This document shows, piece by piece, positions 4,354 to 12,394 of a stretch of DNA of 15,914 nucleotides. Every line of letters begins with the position of its first letter. The first letter of the stretch is position 1. Source of the DNA: an uncultured archaeon (GTDB lineage Archaea; Asgardarchaeota; Lokiarchaeia; Sigyniarchaeales; SOKP01). The position numbers were made by a program, and so were the translations under genes. Location: the NCBI GenBank assembly GCA_964632315.1, contig CAZWEM010000070.1, positions 1 to 15,914 of the forward strand, read 5' to 3'. The notes beneath the pieces were generated by a model, which saw only the letters and a program-made list of their open reading frames with translations, had not been told where the DNA came from and made no database searches.

Positions 4354-5094
4354 ATGGAGAAGGATAACAGAATTATTAGAATCTACCGCCTAATGTTCAT
4401 CTTAGGAGGGCTCATCACTTTCATTTCATGCTTTATTGAATGGTATCACATCGAGGTACTCAACGAACTGGGAGAAGTTGTGTTGGAATGTTCCTATCAT
4501 CTATTTTTAGGTTGGAAGGTAGTTGATAGAATTGCTCCTGGAGCACTTACTGAATTTTATCCTCAATCTTCACCAATGTCGATTGAGTTTGTATTCTTTT
4601 ATCTAGGAATATTAGTAATTTCGGTATACATCTCACTCTTTAAAGGATCGCCTAAATTGCAGAATCCTCAAAAATCCAGATATACGGCTTATTTCTTACT
4701 TACTACGACTATCTTAACGCTAATAATGATCTTGTACTTTTCTTTTGGGATGGTTTCTTCGGATGGATTGCACGTACCCGCTCTTGTAATCTATGACCAA
4801 TCTTACGAGGTAGTTATTTATCAATATATCGGAATCGGGTTTGTTTTACACATTACTTCGTTCATATTCTTATTCCCCTTAGCGTGGTTTCAATTTAGAT
4901 TGAATGCCCAATTTGAGTTAACCAAGGATAATCAAAAGATTGGGAGTGACAACATTATAGATTTAAACCTTGATCAACTCATTGCCGAAGAAATTGCCCA
5001 AAGAGATTCCGACAAAGCTTTCAAATCAACTGAAATAGAAAAAGATATGGGAGTTATCTTATCCAATTATCAACTACGGAGGTCTGAACAGTGA
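4354..5094 (+). CDS. Hypothetical four-TM membrane protein with a charged C-terminal tail
   Basis: 246-aa ORF with four hydrophobic segments (LMFILGGLITFISCFI, FVFFYLGILVISVYISLF, AYFLLTTTILTLIMILYFSF, IGIGFVLHITSFIFLFPLAWF). Its stop overlaps the next start (GTGA). Confidence 0.85.
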   Translation: MEKDNRIIRIYRLMFILGGLITFISCFIEWYHIEVLNELGEVVLECSYHLFLGWKVVDRIAPGALTEFYPQSSPMSIEFVFFYLGILVISVYISLFKGSPKLQNPQKSRYTAYFLLTTTILTLIMILYFSFGMVSSDGLHVPALVIYDQSYEVVIYQYIGIGFVLHITSFIFLFPLAWFQFRLNAQFELTKDNQKIGSDNIIDLNLDQLIAEEIAQRDSDKAFKSTEIEKDMGVILSNYQLRRSEQ

Positions 5095-5927
5095 ATGATC
5101 AGAAGGTTTTCAAGTTTAAAAAATTGGTAGAAGCGTGTTTGGAGACAAAAAATTATGTAAAGTTAGCGGCAACCACTCTCATATTGCTTAGGAATATTGT
5201 TATTTCACATGCTCATTCACTTCAAATTCCTCTAAGATCAGATGCTCACATTCATGAAATGATGCTTCAAATAAATCGTGTTTTGAGTTTTAAGCCTAAT
5301 GCTTCACTGTATGATGAATCCATAATCGCAAGGATAAAGTTAATCGAAAACCTAATGAAAAAAGGAAGAGGAGAGATCCCTTTAAGGTTCATTAAAGATG
5401 CAGCCTCTTTATATTTTGATCTCCAACAAATCTCTATTCCTTCAGATAAATTAGGGGTTGATCCATCGAGTGATTTGGCTTCTAAAGGACTATTCTCGCG
5501 TTTTAATAAATCCAAGAATGAAACGCCAATCTTTCAATTAATAACTCACGAGCTTTCCTCCCGGGAACAATCCCTTCGATCTCGTGTTACTAACGGAAAA
5601 GATGAATCCGCAATGTTGGAATTACAGAGAATTTCCCACCTAAAAGCCTCCCTTAGCAGCAATCAGAATAAAAAAGTTCAAGTAAAGGGTCCTATATCTA
5701 AAGATCAAAGATATAACTTATTTATTGCTCAAAGTAAAGCTTATCCTCTTCTTGGTATCTTCTTCTTATTAGTAACCCTTTCTCTGTTGGTATTGGTTCA
5801 GATGACATTGAATTTTGCTTTATTAGAACCTTTAGGAACATTTTTTTTAATGTTCGGTGGAGGGGCAGCATTTAGTCTTTATCTTTATTCCTTAGCAAAA
5901 AGGAAGGTGGTGAATTCGCTTTGGTAG
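5091..5927 (+). CDS. Hypothetical membrane protein: helical N-terminal region and C-terminal TM hairpin
   Basis: 278-aa ORF, GTG start preceded by GGAGGT, two C-terminal hydrophobic helices, overlaps both neighbours. Confidence 0.85.
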   Translation: MNDQKVFKFKKLVEACLETKNYVKLAATTLILLRNIVISHAHSLQIPLRSDAHIHEMMLQINRVLSFKPNASLYDESIIARIKLIENLMKKGRGEIPLRFIKDAASLYFDLQQISIPSDKLGVDPSSDLASKGLFSRFNKSKNETPIFQLITHELSSREQSLRSRVTNGKDESAMLELQRISHLKASLSSNQNKKVQVKGPISKDQRYNLFIAQSKAYPLLGIFFLLVTLSLLVLVQMTLNFALLEPLGTFFLMFGGGAAFSLYLYSLAKRKVVNSLW

Positions 5928-8900
5928 ATTACATACAATATTTAGAAAAATCAAGTTTAAAATCCTCTAAACATAAAAAACAAGGAGAGCAAGAAGAAGA
6001 TCATTCTAAAGATCGTGATTTATGGCCTATCAATCCCGAATTTCGGGACGTGAATCCAAAGTATTTGGCAATGAGACTCGGAAGTTTAATGGTAATACTT
6101 GCAGTGATGATCTCTCATTTAATCTTATTATCTTTTTCTTTCATTACAGTAATTGAATTAACGATGTTCAGTATTCTATTGTTTTTATTCGCATTTCGAG
6201 AACGAATCTTTTTCCTTCAAAAGCTTTTCTCTCTTCGACAGTTTGATCCTTTTGAATTTTTCGTGTTTTGGCATCTAAAAGATGATCCTCATTCGGTATT
6301 TTATACTCTACCTGCAGATTTTTTAACGGTAGGGCTTCGAGTCTTTCGCATGGAAGTCATTCCTGAGAACGTGACCGCGAGCATAAAACATTTTGTTCGT
6401 GCAGCAGCAAGTAATTTCCATTCACTTAATTATCAAGTTGTCCATCAGCCAATGCATACCTCATTGTTTGACAAGAATTTTCCAAGAAAACATTCTCATC
6501 GCACATTCATTTATTTTACCGTCGCTAAGAAGTTTACTGGTTTCGTCACTATATCGAAATTAAAGCGATTGATGCAATCCTTACGTGCTGAAACTTCAAA
6601 TTTTTCTTCTCGGTTTATTGCTGATTTTCACCATTATAGGATTATAATGCTTTCTAAAAGAGAGACAACAAGCGCCTTGAGAACTATATTTCTTCAACTA
6701 CCAGAAACAGAAACTGGAAGCGAAAGCGATTTCGAGGTGAAAAAACCGATATCTCCCATTCAAGCTTTCACGAAGATAAGTGTTATCCTCTTTCTCTCTA
6801 TCCTTAATGGATGGTTAATTTCATTAACGTGGAACAATTCGTTGCTTTCGATGTTGATTAGCTTAAGTAGTTGCATTCTCCTAATTTTGATTTGGTGGAA
6901 GGAATTGGTATTTCGAATCTCCTCAAAACGCATCCTTGATTTGGATGCAGTGAAAATAATTAACCCCTTTCAAGATATGTCCTTTTATCGCTTTAAGAAG
7001 GCTCCAGACTCGATTTACTTTCATTCTAATAAGGGAATTACTGGAGGCATCCACGCATTAAACGTGCGACACGTCCCTCAACCATTATTTTTCGATGAGA
7101 ATAAACTCTATCATCCCTTAGTCGGCACAGGAATCTCTTTTAGTACTACTATCTCTGCGGTGCCCATTTCGTTTAAAGCTTTTGAGAAAGCGGGATTTAA
7201 GAAGCTTAATCGCCGTGCTCGAAATGACCTCTCTTGGAAGGCTCGAACCGAAGAGGCACGAGCGATTTGGATGGTCCAAAGAGCAGGCATTTGGAAAGCA
7301 GAAATGGTACTAACCACCCAAGCATATCGGAAGGAAAAAGAGCTATCAAGCGAAACATTGCAGGATATCGAGATGGAATTGCTAGAAAACAGTCAAAAAC
7401 TTTCAGGCTTGTTTTACATCCAGTATTCGGCTTGCCGTCTGCAATCACTTCACAACAATCGCTTAGAATCAGCGGTACTAATGACTTCGATAAAAAGTCG
7501 ATACACCCGCTTAGGTGGATCTCACTTGAGATATTCATTAATTCAGGGAATGGATCTTTACCACTTTTTGGACATAGATAACGCTTTCAAGAAGGGAATT
7601 GAAACCAAGATTGCGGCTGAATTTAACACTCCACTTCACTTGGAGAATGAAATACCCTTAGGGCATACAATCAATACCGAATTCTTGGAACAAGAAGTAG
7701 TTGCCGGTTTTTCATTGGATCAAGCCCGAGAGCTCCTCATAATGAATGGAACAGACGCTTCACGAGAGGAAGTCTCTCTATTAATAGCTAGGAATCTAAT
7801 TGCCCAAGGACAAAAAGTCATCTATTTTGATTTTACAGGAAATGGTTCGAAGTTGATTAAATTACTAAAAAAAGAATCTTTACATAATAATATCCTACTT
7901 TATAACTTAGGAAAGACACTCTCTATTGACCCTATTCATTCCGAAATTCCTCACGATACTCAAAACGTGAAGTTTTTAGACTTGATGCTGGATGTCTATG
8001 CTCTGTGCTTTAAAAAGGATGAGCACACCGTTGCCATGTTCAAGAATTCTCTTTCTCAACTCTCTACATCTGGAGATAAGGCGGATTTCATGGGATTTCA
8101 CACTTTATCACTAACTCTCGATACCCAGCAAGATTGGAAAACATCACCCGCGGTGAGTTCCATTTTATCCACGTTAGAAGATTTCACAGAACAAGATTCA
8201 GTATACTTGTATTCCCAAGGGAATTCTCCCCAAAACAAATCGACCGTAGTTGAATTCTTCAAAAATGAGAAAAGCATCATTATTGACATTTCAAGCACGA
8301 ACGATTTAGAGAAAAAATGCTTCTTCACTTGGTTAATCTTGGCAAAATTACTCCATTATCAATCGCGTGTTGATGATGTCACTCCTAAATATTTCATTAT
8401 CCCTCATATTGATATGGTTTTTGATCAATATTTTTTGGAGAAAAACATGAAATACGGTAAGATTGGGAAATTTATCTCGCCCTTACTTCAAGCAGGTCAT
8501 GGCTTGGTCTGTACTGCAAGTCAAGCTCATTTTCTTCATTCTAGTATCTTTTATCTCTTTCTCAATTATATAACATTTAAAGCGACTGATACGAGGGATA
8601 TTAGTACTTTGCGAAATGTTCTTAATTTAGAAGAATTACACGGTCAAGGTTATTATAGTAAGAGTCGCAATGAAGCGTATCAAGTGCGCTACCTCATGAC
8701 CATGCGACCTCACGAAGCCTTGATGAAACGAGATGATATTTACCAACCCTTTCCCGTTGAATTTGACGTTAATTCAATCAAAACAATGGTTCCTTTGTCA
8801 TGGAAAGAGATCATATATCACATGAAAAATGAGGGGTATGATATTGAGGATGCTGAACGTGAAATTTTTGAACGAGCACGGAAGACCGTCATTGAAAATG

Positions 8901-9733
8901 ATTTTGACAATTATGCCTTTCTTATTCCTGAGATCATCAACTTTTTAGGAAGTCTTCAGACCGTACATCAAATTGGGAATCTATACCGAAGCAAGATCGC
9001 TGAAGAACTGAAGAACACCATTTATCCTAAATTATCTAAGATAACAAAAGATAAACGACAGTTGAAAAAAATGCGAGATGAAATTTTAACCATACTTTTG
9101 TCTCATGGTTATCTAATTGAAAGTCATCCAAATCAAGCAAGCGGAGGGCAATCAATACGTCCCTCGTTCCAAGTCTCTCCCAAGTTTACCACCATCTTGG
9201 AAGATTATTATCAAGCAAAGCAAGTAATCCCTACCAACGTGGAATTTGAAACGGTATCGCAAGAAACTGAGGATGTTACTGAATTCGTTTTTTCAGATAA
9301 CCCTAAAAGAAGCATGCTTCCCTTAACAGAAGTAAAATCCATAATGCGAAGGATCTCCATTGATATTTTACAATGGAATCTATTTCAGATGCATCGCTCC
9401 TTGACCAAACAAGATTATGAGCAGTGCCTTAAGATCGGAAAAGATTTATCTGAAGTGTTCATTTCCAATCTCCAAGCTGAAGTTGAGCGTTTACCTGATG
9501 TCAAGCAATTTAATTCGCTAAATGAGTTCTTCACTTCATTATGTAAAGTAGAAGGATTTCCATTGACTGAAGATGAGATTAAAAGGTGGTTTAAATATCC
9601 CAAAACTTTAATCTCCACCGAGCAAATTACTCAAAACAATATTAAGGATGTTTGTCACAACATTTATAACTCTCATCGAGATTTTTCATTTCAATTGGAA
9701 CCATACATATCAGGAGGGAAAAAAGTAATTTGA
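5921..9733 (+). CDS. Membrane-anchored VirB4/HerA (FtsK-HerA superfamily)-like protein with degenerate Walker motifs
   Basis: 1270-aa ORF, TTG start preceded by AGGAAGGTGGTGA. Two TM hairpins (about aa 50-92 and 285-326). The C-terminal half follows HerA/VirB4 motif order: IPLG...FSLDQARELLIMNGTDASRE...GQKVIYFDFTGN...SIDP...IIIDISS...YFIIPHID...GHGLVCTASQ...YITFK...LMTMRPHEALMK...PFPVEF. Confidence 0.75.
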   Translation: MVDYIQYLEKSSLKSSKHKKQGEQEEDHSKDRDLWPINPEFRDVNPKYLAMRLGSLMVILAVMISHLILLSFSFITVIELTMFSILLFLFAFRERIFFLQKLFSLRQFDPFEFFVFWHLKDDPHSVFYTLPADFLTVGLRVFRMEVIPENVTASIKHFVRAAASNFHSLNYQVVHQPMHTSLFDKNFPRKHSHRTFIYFTVAKKFTGFVTISKLKRLMQSLRAETSNFSSRFIADFHHYRIIMLSKRETTSALRTIFLQLPETETGSESDFEVKKPISPIQAFTKISVILFLSILNGWLISLTWNNSLLSMLISLSSCILLILIWWKELVFRISSKRILDLDAVKIINPFQDMSFYRFKKAPDSIYFHSNKGITGGIHALNVRHVPQPLFFDENKLYHPLVGTGISFSTTISAVPISFKAFEKAGFKKLNRRARNDLSWKARTEEARAIWMVQRAGIWKAEMVLTTQAYRKEKELSSETLQDIEMELLENSQKLSGLFYIQYSACRLQSLHNNRLESAVLMTSIKSRYTRLGGSHLRYSLIQGMDLYHFLDIDNAFKKGIETKIAAEFNTPLHLENEIPLGHTINTEFLEQEVVAGFSLDQARELLIMNGTDASREEVSLLIARNLIAQGQKVIYFDFTGNGSKLIKLLKKESLHNNILLYNLGKTLSIDPIHSEIPHDTQNVKFLDLMLDVYALCFKKDEHTVAMFKNSLSQLSTSGDKADFMGFHTLSLTLDTQQDWKTSPAVSSILSTLEDFTEQDSVYLYSQGNSPQNKSTVVEFFKNEKSIIIDISSTNDLEKKCFFTWLILAKLLHYQSRVDDVTPKYFIIPHIDMVFDQYFLEKNMKYGKIGKFISPLLQAGHGLVCTASQAHFLHSSIFYLFLNYITFKATDTRDISTLRNVLNLEELHGQGYYSKSRNEAYQVRYLMTMRPHEALMKRDDIYQPFPVEFDVNSIKTMVPLSWKEIIYHMKNEGYDIEDAEREIFERARKTVIENDFDNYAFLIPEIINFLGSLQTVHQIGNLYRSKIAEELKNTIYPKLSKITKDKRQLKKMRDEILTILLSHGYLIESHPNQASGGQSIRPSFQVSPKFTTILEDYYQAKQVIPTNVEFETVSQETEDVTEFVFSDNPKRSMLPLTEVKSIMRRISIDILQWNLFQMHRSLTKQDYEQCLKIGKDLSEVFISNLQAEVERLPDVKQFNSLNEFFTSLCKVEGFPLTEDEIKRWFKYPKTLISTEQITQNNIKDVCHNIYNSHRDFSFQLEPYISGGKKVI

Positions 9734-10050
9734 CAATGGAAATCAAGAACTTGGTGGAAAAAATCGTGTTCGATGAGTATCAATTATTACAACTTAAGCA
9801 GGCATTAACTAAGCTAAATAGGAAAAAAATTGAATTGAAAGAAGTAAAAGAAATCATCTTAAACCAAAGAACAGTTATAATGGAATCTCTTGTTGATTTG
9901 TTATTTTTTTACCTAAGTCAACAACAATCAAGGTTATCTTCAAATGAAAAAGGAGAGAAAATAAAAAAACTACAATTGCAAATTAAAGAACGAGAAGATT
10001 TATTGGAAGAAATTGGAAAAAGATTGGAAAATATCAAGTTGATTCCATGA
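9730..10050 (+). CDS. Hypothetical small coiled-coil protein
   Basis: 106-aa K/E/Q/L-rich ORF. TTG start overlaps the upstream stop (TTGA), with GGAGG at 9713-9717; ATG 9736 is an alternative start. Followed by oligo-T. Confidence 0.75.
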   Translation: MTMEIKNLVEKIVFDEYQLLQLKQALTKLNRKKIELKEVKEIILNQRTVIMESLVDLLFFYLSQQQSRLSSNEKGEKIKKLQLQIKEREDLLEEIGKRLENIKLIP

Positions 10051-10284: not shown

Positions 10285-10941
10285 ATGGAAATCAGTCTCA
10301 TCTTTCCCTTTTTGGACCCAGAACATTTTTTCCTTCAATTAATATCAATTTTTCCAATCATTTTATATAATCTTCTAATTTATATGACTATTTGGAGATA
10401 TAAAGAGGATTTAAAATTATCAAGATTACTCCTCATATCTTCCCTAATCGCGTTAGGAGTAGCCCTTGCTACTTTTTTTCTACCGGGAATTAGCGCAAGT
10501 CATGTCTCTGAAGAGGAAGTGCTTATTTTAAACCTCTATAGTATCTTGATACCGATACTTACTCTCATTCCAATGCAATTTTTTCCCGCTTTATCTCTCT
10601 TAATTTTCGGTTATTTCAATATTAGACAATATAAATATTACTTACTTCTTGCTGGAACCTTTTTATTTGCTTATTACGTGTTCTCCTTTATTAATTTTGC
10701 GTTTACAATATTATTAAGCCCTTCAGAGTATCTTGAAAATATCATCTTATATACATTCTTAAGTTATGTATTCCTCGTGATGATTCTGACAGCGTATGCC
10801 TTTCTGATTGTTCATGGTGTTTTAAATAAGCAACCTTTTTTTAGGAGTACAGGGATAGTTCTGGTTAGTACGGTTGTATTTTTATTTTTCTTTTCATCAT
10901 TTTTCTATAATTTAATATTTGGATTTTTTAGAGGGATATAG
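10285..10941 (+). CDS. Hypothetical polytopic membrane protein (about 6 TM)
   Basis: 218-aa ORF, almost entirely hydrophobic with short loops; no recognisable catalytic motif. Confidence 0.8.
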   Translation: MEISLIFPFLDPEHFFLQLISIFPIILYNLLIYMTIWRYKEDLKLSRLLLISSLIALGVALATFFLPGISASHVSEEEVLILNLYSILIPILTLIPMQFFPALSLLIFGYFNIRQYKYYLLLAGTFLFAYYVFSFINFAFTILLSPSEYLENIILYTFLSYVFLVMILTAYAFLIVHGVLNKQPFFRSTGIVLVSTVVFLFFFSSFFYNLIFGFFRGI

Positions 10942-10964: not shown

Positions 10965-11519
10965 ATGAAAATAAAAAGATATCAAATATTCTTCAGTATT
11001 TTCCTAATGCTTCTAGTGTCTGCTAATATGGAAAGGATGACTGCATCTTATGAGCGTGAATCCAATTCAATCTCTATTAATGGAGAGACTGACGTTGTTG
11101 TACTTTATCCAGGGGATTATGTGTACGTCCGACACTATGTAGAAAGAATAATTATTTTCTCTTTTCAATGTGATAATCCAAATGTAAAAGTTACAGCTTA
11201 TTTAATGGAGGATAATTACTTTGAGTCATTCCAACATGATATGGGGTATGCAGCATTTTATTTGTCCAATGGCCCGAAAAATAGTGCTTCTGGACGTTAT
11301 GAAGTTCCTCATGAAGATTATTGGAATATTGTGTTTATAAATGAAGAATCTAATGGAGAATCGACCATTTTGCGTTATCAGCTTCAATTTGATAATGAAG
11401 ATCCATTCATTTACATAACACCTATTCTTGCTGTATCTCTCGTAGTTGGAGTTGTAGTATCGCTTTTTCTAATACGTAGGAAAAAGCCTAGAGAATCTGT
11501 GGCAGTTTTAGCCTCTTAA
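10965..11519 (+). CDS. Single-pass surface protein with a GOLD/PPC-like beta-sandwich domain
   Basis: RBS GGAGTTGA; signal peptide MKIKRYQIFFSIFLMLLVSA; beta-rich domain (IIFSFQC...VTAYLM...SASGRYEVPHEDYWNIVFIN); C-terminal TM followed by RRKK. Confidence 0.8.
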   Translation: MKIKRYQIFFSIFLMLLVSANMERMTASYERESNSISINGETDVVVLYPGDYVYVRHYVERIIIFSFQCDNPNVKVTAYLMEDNYFESFQHDMGYAAFYLSNGPKNSASGRYEVPHEDYWNIVFINEESNGESTILRYQLQFDNEDPFIYITPILAVSLVVGVVVSLFLIRRKKPRESVAVLAS

Positions 11520-11554: not shown

Positions 11555-12394
11555 TCATTTCATCTCGAACTGAAAAGGTTGCATTCTCAAATAGTCGAAT
11601 CCTGAGACATTTGGTGCTAAATTCATAGGTTTTACTCCTAATAGTCCGGCAAAGATGATTTCCGCACAAAGATAAGAGGCTGCAATGCCAATAAAAGGTG
11701 CAAATGAACGATAGGGCACTTCACCGCTTTTCATTTGATCCCACATTCCTGGTTCTCGATCATAAATTTCATCAATACCAGGAAACTGAAGCAACTTAGG
11801 AAAAAGATCTCCGAAACTGGTCATCTCTGAATTAAGCAAGTCATGGGTTGTCATTTTATGAGTCTTTAACCCATAACACGTTTCATAATCGATGCTTGTC
11901 TTGGTAAACCAAAACGACCAAATATAGGGAATTCCCCACGTTTCCACTAAAGGAATCATTCGTTCTTGACAGCCTCGTGCGATCAAGATTGAGCCAATAG
12001 GATCGTCCAAAGTAAGTGCTACAACCTTCACGTTGTTTAAAAGTTTATCAGTGGTTTTTTCATTTACTGCATCAAATTTTCCTATGTGAACGCGTTCATT
12101 TATTTTTCTCAATTTTTTTTCAACCACATCAATTTTTCGCATTCCCATGTGCTTCCTCTCGCAGATTTGCCGGTTGAGATTAGACGGATCGAACACGTCT
12201 CGGTCGCATATAACCAATTTCTCACAACCCGCCCTTACTAAAAGCTCAGATAACATACCACCCAGTCCACCTACTCCAAATACGCCGATAGGTGTGGTTC
12301 GAAGCTTTTCCTGTTCTTCTGGAGTGACATGACCAATATTTCTGCTCACGTGTTTAGAATAATCTTGGGTCCATTTTTGAGATAACTCTAACAT
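11555..12394 (-). CDS. ThiF/MoeB/E1-like adenylyltransferase family protein
   Basis: SRNIG..TPEEQEKL, GVGGLGG nucleotide-binding loop, DRDVFDPSNLNRQ, the conserved K in GMRKID, and a downstream LDD. No CxxC zinc pairs. Confidence 0.92.
   Translation of the reverse strand: MLELSQKWTQDYSKHVSRNIGHVTPEEQEKLRTTPIGVFGVGGLGGMLSELLVRAGCEKLVICDRDVFDPSNLNRQICERKHMGMRKIDVVEKKLRKINERVHIGKFDAVNEKTTDKLLNNVKVVALTLDDPIGSILIARGCQERMIPLVETWGIPYIWSFWFTKTSIDYETCYGLKTHKMTTHDLLNSEMTSFGDLFPKLLQFPGIDEIYDREPGMWDQMKSGEVPYRSFAPFIGIAASYLCAEIIFAGLLGVKPMNLAPNVSGFDYLRMQPFQFEMK

Follow-up and report, generated by a model that had tools for sequence, protein, structure and literature searches.

A VirB4-type protein that has lost its ATP-site motifs, encoded in a conserved four-gene operon of Asgard archaea

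All type IV secretion and conjugation systems have one ATPase in common, VirB4, which is usually seen as their defining motor. The stretch of DNA described here, termed the window (15,914 nucleotides (nt); positions 1 to 15,914 of contig CAZWEM010000070.1, assembly GCA_964632315.1), originates from an uncultured archaeon of the Lokiarchaeia (Asgardarchaeota); its GC content is low (~35%), and its proteins have their nearest relatives in Loki/Prometheo-type Asgard archaea. The third gene of a four-gene operon in this window (genes A-B-C-D) is an uninterrupted open reading frame (ORF) with a TTG start (gene C; 5921..9733, + strand), and it encodes a 1270-amino-acid (aa) protein of VirB4 architecture with a dead ATP site. 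We read this protein, with a probability of about 0.68, as a motor-dead VirB4 that retains a non-catalytic, organising role at the centre of a small membrane complex, in which the products of genes A, B and D would be its partners.

RvhB4-II of the Rickettsiales is a VirB4 paralog without ATPase active-site residues that is strictly conserved and faster-evolving than its active counterpart; it always coexists with the active RvhB4-I and a full rvh type IV secretion system (T4SS) (PMC4676284). In the literature searched, RvhB4-II was the sole conserved dead VirB4 found, and no paper was found that connects VirB4 with Asgard archaea or reports a VirB4 pseudo-ATPase from them. Gene C resembles RvhB4-II as a full-size, conserved VirB4 homolog without catalytic residues, but it is archaeal, it is encoded with three partners of no known family, and no active VirB4 or other T4SS part was found in its genome. 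CedB and TedB are described as active ATPases that power DNA translocation in the crenarchaeal DNA-import systems Ced and Ted; like gene C, they represent archaeal, chromosomal, domesticated VirB4-like proteins encoded together with small transmembrane (TM) proteins (PMC9905601). In contrast to CedB and TedB, the catalytic motifs are absent from gene C, and its partners A, B and D are not demonstrated homologs of CedA, CedA1 or CedA2.

VirB4/TrwK of the R388 T4SS (PDB 7o42, 7o43, 8rtb, 8rtd) matches gene C in both domains and in domain order and is likewise membrane-associated; the predicted fold of the C-terminal domain of gene C is also that of the C-terminal domain of Thermoanaerobacter pseudethanolicus VirB4 (4ag5, 4ag6). 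Gene C differs from VirB4/TrwK in that it lacks the Walker A GK[ST], the Walker B Asp-Glu pair and a match to the Pfam models CagE_TrbE_VirB and AAA_10, that it contains two TM hairpins within the chain and a C-terminal extension of ~300 aa, and that it is a vertically inherited chromosomal gene of an archaeon in whose genome VirB6- and VirD4-type genes were not detected. HerA (Sulfolobus 4d2i; bacterial Sir2-HerA and DUF4297-HerA) scored highest in the structural comparisons of the C-terminal domain, and HerA and gene C have a motif order in common (hhhhD..G after strand beta2, a DLS strand, and the sensor-1 Gln). However, the N-terminal half of gene C matches VirB4 and gave no HerA match, there is no nuclease or Sir2 partner, and the catalytic motifs are lost.

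The C-terminal domain of the protein (FtsK/HerA/VirB4 fold, aa 563-963, nt 7607..8809, + strand) was modelled with AlphaFold2 from 29 diverse orthologs (aa 530-1000; predicted local distance difference test (pLDDT) 75.6, predicted template-modelling score (pTM) 0.77). Foldseek matched this model to HerA 4d2i (E 1e-12) and to VirB4 4ag5 (template-modelling scores 0.53/0.65), and VIA-align returned Z scores of 23.9 for HerA 4d2i, 23.8 for DndH-C, 23.3 for VirB4 4ag6, 21.9 for TrwB and 16-18 for TrwK. The preliminary description of this DNA, made from the letters alone, had assigned a VirB4/HerA-like domain and had named a fold other than the RecA-like P-loop as grounds for abandoning its pseudo-enzyme reading; the predicted structure, with its Foldseek E of 1e-12 and its VIA-align Z of 22-24, bears out the RecA-like FtsK/HerA/VirB4 P-loop fold.

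The N-terminal half comprises a first TM hairpin (aa 57-99, nt 6089..6217, + strand; by hydropathy), which could represent a fused VirB3, followed by a VirB4-type N-terminal domain (aa 109-560, nt 6245..7600, + strand) into which a second TM hairpin is inserted (aa 277-333, nt 6749-6919, + strand). The AlphaFold2 model of this part (aa 100-560; pLDDT 84.6, pTM 0.85) was matched by Foldseek to TrwK/VirB4 of R388 alone (14 VirB4 chains, E 4e-9 to 1e-7; next match, E 0.03), and VIA-align against TrwK residues 15-403 gave Z 25.5 over 331 aligned residues (root-mean-square deviation 3.8 Å), with the best unrelated chain at Z 6.8. With respect to the HAS-barrel of HerA, the N-terminal model matched VirB4 only, which does not in itself exclude an unlisted fold. 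In the model, the N-terminal half has two soluble modules, which are predicted to be the halves of one VirB4 N-terminal domain, split by the second hairpin. Because the N-terminal domain matches the VirB4 N-terminal domain alone, gene C is termed VirB4-like, a narrower assignment than VirB4/HerA-like.

At the sequence level these relationships are faint. The gene C protein had no Pfam match at E <= 0.1, including CagE_TrbE_VirB (PF03135) and AAA_10 (PF12846), the sole NCBIfam match of its domain was CedD (E 0.0015), and sequence searches of the PDB, by single sequence and by profile, returned nothing. An hhalign comparison of the family profile with the HerA-type proteins of the same genome gave either a 36-residue alignment from the P-loop to beta2 (probability 3.5%) or nothing. 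A complex prediction with two copies of the C-terminal domain scored 0.00; this gives no verdict and counts neither way.

The segment LLIMNGTDASREE (aa 605-617, nt 7733-7771) covers the former Walker A motif, which reads NGTDASRE (aa 609-616, nt 7745..7768, + strand), with R615 at the Lys position, E616 at the Ser/Thr position and the codon of G610 at 7748-7750. The former Walker B motif reads YFII-PH-ID (aa 824-831, nt 8390..8413, + strand), with P828-H829 in place of Asp-Glu. Both readings, i.e. a Walker A position without GK[ST] and YFIIPHID at Walker B, had been proposed in the preliminary description and were recovered where it had placed them, and each flanking family motif that it quoted was located in the claimed order (VIYFDFTGN, aa 633-641; IIIDISS, 786-792; GHGLVCTASQ, 859-868; YITFK, 883-887; MRPHEAL, 928-934), within a frame that is open throughout.

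The assignment of the Walker positions is anchored by these flanking motifs, by the predicted structure and by an alignment with L003, a HerA-type ATPase with intact motifs from the same genome. Gene C and L003 (...ITGKSGSGKS...ILDRHGEY) align without gaps from beta1 to the hhhhD..G of beta2: the distance from the end of the motif to the Asp is 21 residues in both, a Gly at +14 is common to both, and N609, G610, T611, D612, A613, S614, R615 and E616 face G, K, S, G, S, G, K and S, respectively. In the AlphaFold2 model, beta1 spans aa 604-608 and is followed by a helix from 612 onwards, and the Walker B strand is formed by aa 824-827 (YFII), with P828-H829 at its tip. For the sensor-1 strand region (GHGLVCTASQ...H, aa 859-873, nt 8495..8539, + strand), comparison by eye with L003 (QEGRKFG...TQRP) suggests that the Gln of the 'TQRP' motif of HerA/FtsK is retained and that the next Arg is gone.

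The loss is shared by the family. Neither GK[ST] nor an acidic Walker B was present in any of 29 orthologs, down to 31% identity, and in a wider set of about 175 ortholog rows the former active site carries the same replacements throughout: G610 is present in 174/175 rows, residue 615 is Arg in 162, Gln in six and Lys in four (never in a GK[ST] context), E/D616 is found in 151/175, P828 in 173/175 and D831 in 164/175. Two residues that flank this region, K823 preceding the Walker B strand and F834, are invariant (175/175 each), and in the sensor-1 region G861 (172/174), Q868 (157/174) and H873 (172/174) are likewise conserved. Homologs of 1250-1300 aa (n=159) originate without exception from Asgard-type metagenome genomes. 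Among 271 family proteins, a single [AG]xxxxGK[ST] was found, located outside the P-loop, and none has GK[ST] at the P-loop itself, for which reason the loss of the ATP site is considered ancient. When 1.84 billion representatives were searched exhaustively with phmmer, all relatives retrieved down to E 1e-3 were without Walker A. The more distant of these (n=39; those with a source name are labelled Promethearchaeota, Baldrarchaeota and Sigynarchaeota) read GGTxxER at Walker A and also lack the Walker A Lys motif; they are soluble forms of ~535 aa or forms of ~800 aa (P0217, P0223, P0225 and P0229 among them), and there looks to be a broader superfamily of Walker-A-less VirB4/HerA-fold proteins in Asgard lineages. 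Hence the orthologs have all lost both the Lys and the Asp-Glu pair, and the loss at Walker A extends to distant Asgard relatives; no close ortholog with canonical Walker motifs was found, which excludes recent decay.

The gene is under purifying selection. dN/dS values by the method of Nei and Gojobori (NG86) were calculated for the six possible pairs of four sequences (gene C and three orthologs at 80-84% identity to it) and came to 0.09-0.13 over the full gene and 0.07-0.10 over the ATPase-fold domain; with dS at 0.8-1.6, i.e. near saturation, these values are approximate. Closer orthologs from metagenomes were taken for this comparison, and the same-genus genomes were set aside as too divergent (33-46% identity). 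With the motifs lost family-wide, the fold kept and dN/dS at about 0.1, the earlier view of gene C as a maintained pseudo-enzyme with an intact scaffold is upheld.

Conservation within the protein lies outside of the former catalytic motifs. Among 103 non-redundant orthologs, the variability of positions 611-614, in the middle of the former P-loop, ranks at the 80th-99th percentile of the domain; the freedom of these residues to vary argues against a phosphate grip by the former P-loop. The most conserved 20-residue windows (aa 557-576, 1064-1083, 902-921, 578-597 and 927-946) cover no Walker motif. The best-conserved segment (aa 557-597, nt 7589..7711, + strand; lowest entropy in the 29-sequence alignment) directly precedes strand beta1 and has many near-invariant residues among the 103 orthologs, and the second-best window (aa 1064-1083, nt 9110-9169), which reads ...YLIESHP..ASGG.S.R..., is located inside the C-terminal extension (nt 8810..9730, + strand), a part that is not present in VirB4. 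As judged from the alignments, selection appears to have shifted to the fold and to other surfaces (aa 557-597, 902-946 and 1064-1083), of which aa 557-597 and 1064-1083 are candidate interaction surfaces. A winged helix in the C-terminal extension is a weak, unproven lead: Pfam matches were scattered, sub-threshold and confined to 1-2 of 29 members, and hhalign of the extension against the PadR-like tail of a distant relative gave a probability of 0.4%. A PadR-like winged helix was predicted at the C-terminus of some distant relatives (P0217, E 1.8e-4).

Of 68 genomes sampled from the GTDB family, 52 contain strong orthologs of gene C; elsewhere the gene is rare and represented by distant forms only. 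The operon is followed by a convergent ThiF-family gene (window 11555-12394, - strand), and this arrangement is retained in the same-genus genomes G071, G083, G113, G264 and G270. The conserved convergent synteny indicates that the locus is vertically inherited, and an origin of this gene C copy from a mobile element was rejected on the same grounds. Within the genus, the ThiF proteins are 50-75% identical and the gene C proteins 33-46%, so that gene C evolves clearly faster than its neighbour. Some other genomes contain two or three family copies (G171, G141 and G195; G008, in three places). One copy in G195 (G195:C4:90936-92329) is split, with six in-frame stops (3 TGA, 3 TAA), and is probably a decayed extra copy.

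The partner genes are tightly arranged around gene C. Gene A (4354..5094, + strand; 246 aa), the first of the operon, is predicted from hydropathy to have 4 TM helices, and orthologs are found at the equivalent position in five other loci (L007, L008, L009, L017 and L018; blastp E 4e-13 to 1e-128). Gene B (5091..5927, + strand; 278 aa) shares 4 nt with gene A and 7 nt with gene C and encodes a helical, soluble N-terminal part followed by C-terminal TM helices; its orthologs also occupy the equivalent position in five loci (E 2e-14 to 5e-127). Gene D (9730..10050, + strand; 106 aa) overlaps the stop of gene C by 4 nt and encodes a soluble, helical, coiled-coil-like protein, with orthologs directly 3' of gene C in L007, L008, L016, L017 and L018 (E 3e-8 to 3e-44). 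In every locus read, A, B and D have orthologous counterparts, at identities as low as 23-30%. For gene A, Pfam, NCBIfam, PADLOC and Protein Atlas gave no lead beyond its own Asgard cluster; for gene B, no family match was obtained in Pfam, NCBIfam or PADLOC, and Protein Atlas returned its own Asgard cluster alone. No PADLOC defence model matched any protein of the operon. A, B and D could be unrecognisably diverged analogs of T4SS components.

We therefore favour a structural hub rather than a motor, since the ATP residues are replaced in every relative and yet the gene is strongly conserved. The protein keeps the full VirB4 body plan, with a VirB4-specific N-terminal domain and a RecA-like C-terminal domain, and two TM hairpins within the chain anchor it in the membrane. 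The ATP site was lost before the family diversified, with Arg replacing the Walker Lys, Glu the Mg-binding Ser/Thr and Pro-His the Asp-Glu pair, and with the P-loop glycines gone; to judge from the residues, the protein most likely neither hydrolyses ATP nor grips phosphate, and we infer from this a loss of ATP binding and a role as scaffold. It would then serve as a cytoplasmic/membrane platform that organises a complex with A (4 TM helices), B (TM helices and a soluble domain) and D (a small helical protein).

Several points weigh against a motor-dead hub. The structures of gene C are predictions, and its dN/dS values suffer from the near-saturation described above. The residue register at Walker A has two alternatives, as hhalign favours one that is one residue off, with a gap, from the gap-free alignment; GK[ST] is absent in either. 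Some ATPases with a Lys-to-Arg exchange in the P-loop still bind nucleotide. The strong conservation of G610, R615, P828, D831, Q868 and H873 indicates that the old pocket has not simply eroded, and the Walker B of some distant relatives retains an acidic DD or DE pair; the latter suggests that Walker A was lost first, and Walker B later, within the 1260-aa clade. Finally, a physical association of the gene C product with A, B and D is inferred from gene order.

The conserved residues might instead form a remodelled site, in which G610, R615, D831, Q868 and H873 would line a non-canonical pocket for a nucleotide, or for another phosphorylated or anionic ligand, that acts as a regulatory switch without turnover. 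This is consistent with the conservation of G610, R615, P828, D831 and H873, which is far above the domain average, and the recurrence of GGTxxER, often together with DD at Walker B, in the distant relatives suggests a shared alternative site. However, the phosphate-wrapping residues 611-614 are among the most variable of the domain, the acidic residues in and after the loop (D612; E/D616) should repel phosphate, and the conserved residues may equally be structural, e.g. as a buried salt bridge that replaces the nucleotide. A remodelled site is regarded as rather unlikely.

The preliminary description had also envisaged gene C as the inactive subunit of a hetero-oligomer whose active paralog is encoded elsewhere, in the manner of RvhB4-II, which is thought to join RvhB4-I (PMC4676284). 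The search for an intact paralog that it had suggested was carried out on the genome (4.45 Mb, 99.5% complete). The gene C family is represented by a single copy, and the Pfam models AAA_10, CagE_TrbE_VirB, T4SS-DNA_transf (VirD4) and TrbL (VirB6) had no match in this genome; no active VirB4-type paralog was found. 'DUF87' matches on contigs C12, C69 and C33 were considered as paralogs and rejected; these are ABC transporters and a MinD/ParA-type protein. The intact members of the FtsK/HerA superfamily are two HerA-type proteins on other contigs, L002 and L003, both of which keep GKS and DEAH. L003 is encoded at G000:C9:25761-27452 (L003:376-2070, - strand) and has 564 aa, with a long coiled-coil tail. 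These two ATPases, along with the Rickettsiales precedent, are the points in favour of a powered hetero-oligomer. However, L003-type proteins are present in 107 of 121 sampled family genomes (68-82% identity), including all six same-genus genomes in which no dead VirB4 was detected, and consequently L003-type HerA neither depends on nor co-varies with the dead VirB4. In addition, every copy in the multi-copy genomes is Walker-less, and in none of the six loci read does the operon have a linked ATPase gene. An active partner encoded elsewhere is therefore not supported, and we consider it quite improbable. A recently decaying gene, or a misalignment artefact, for which nothing but the absence of Pfam matches speaks, is hardly credible in view of 1270 open codons, a dN/dS of ~0.1, the same substitutions in orthologs down to 31% identity, and a register anchored by the flanking motifs and the predicted structure.

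Two further ORFs for membrane proteins are located between gene D and the ThiF-family gene (10285-10941, 218 aa with at least 6 TM helices; 10965-11519, 184 aa with a C-terminal TM helix); neither had a family match, and in L017 an ORF of 215 aa is present at the equivalent position. A protein of 600-710 aa whose N-terminus is a helix-hairpin-helix (HHH_5) DNA-binding domain is encoded immediately upstream of gene A in three of the distant orthologous loci (L007:4028-5899, L008:4345-6483, L009:4561-6378), adjoining a DEAD/Hel308-type helicase. The homolog of this HHH_5 protein in the genome described here is found on another contig (G000:C61:1001-1942, L022; E 5e-41), and the linkage is thus not universal.

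A more far-reaching proposal, which we put forward as speculative and unlikely, is that Lokiarchaeia-type Asgard archaea have, in A-B-C-D, a hitherto unknown membrane machine that works without ATP and derives from a T4SS or from a Ced-like DNA-transfer apparatus. The dead VirB4 would be its sole recognisable part and, as a ring or platform beneath the membrane, would support a conduit or contact site made with proteins of no known family. If true, this machine could still handle DNA, given the upstream HHH protein in several lineages, with energy that does not come from VirB4.

The finding flags a four-gene membrane module in these archaea. A dead VirB4 that stands alone would mean that the organising, non-catalytic role of the VirB4 body is selectable by itself, and the gene C protein may serve as a natural test of which VirB4 functions require ATP.

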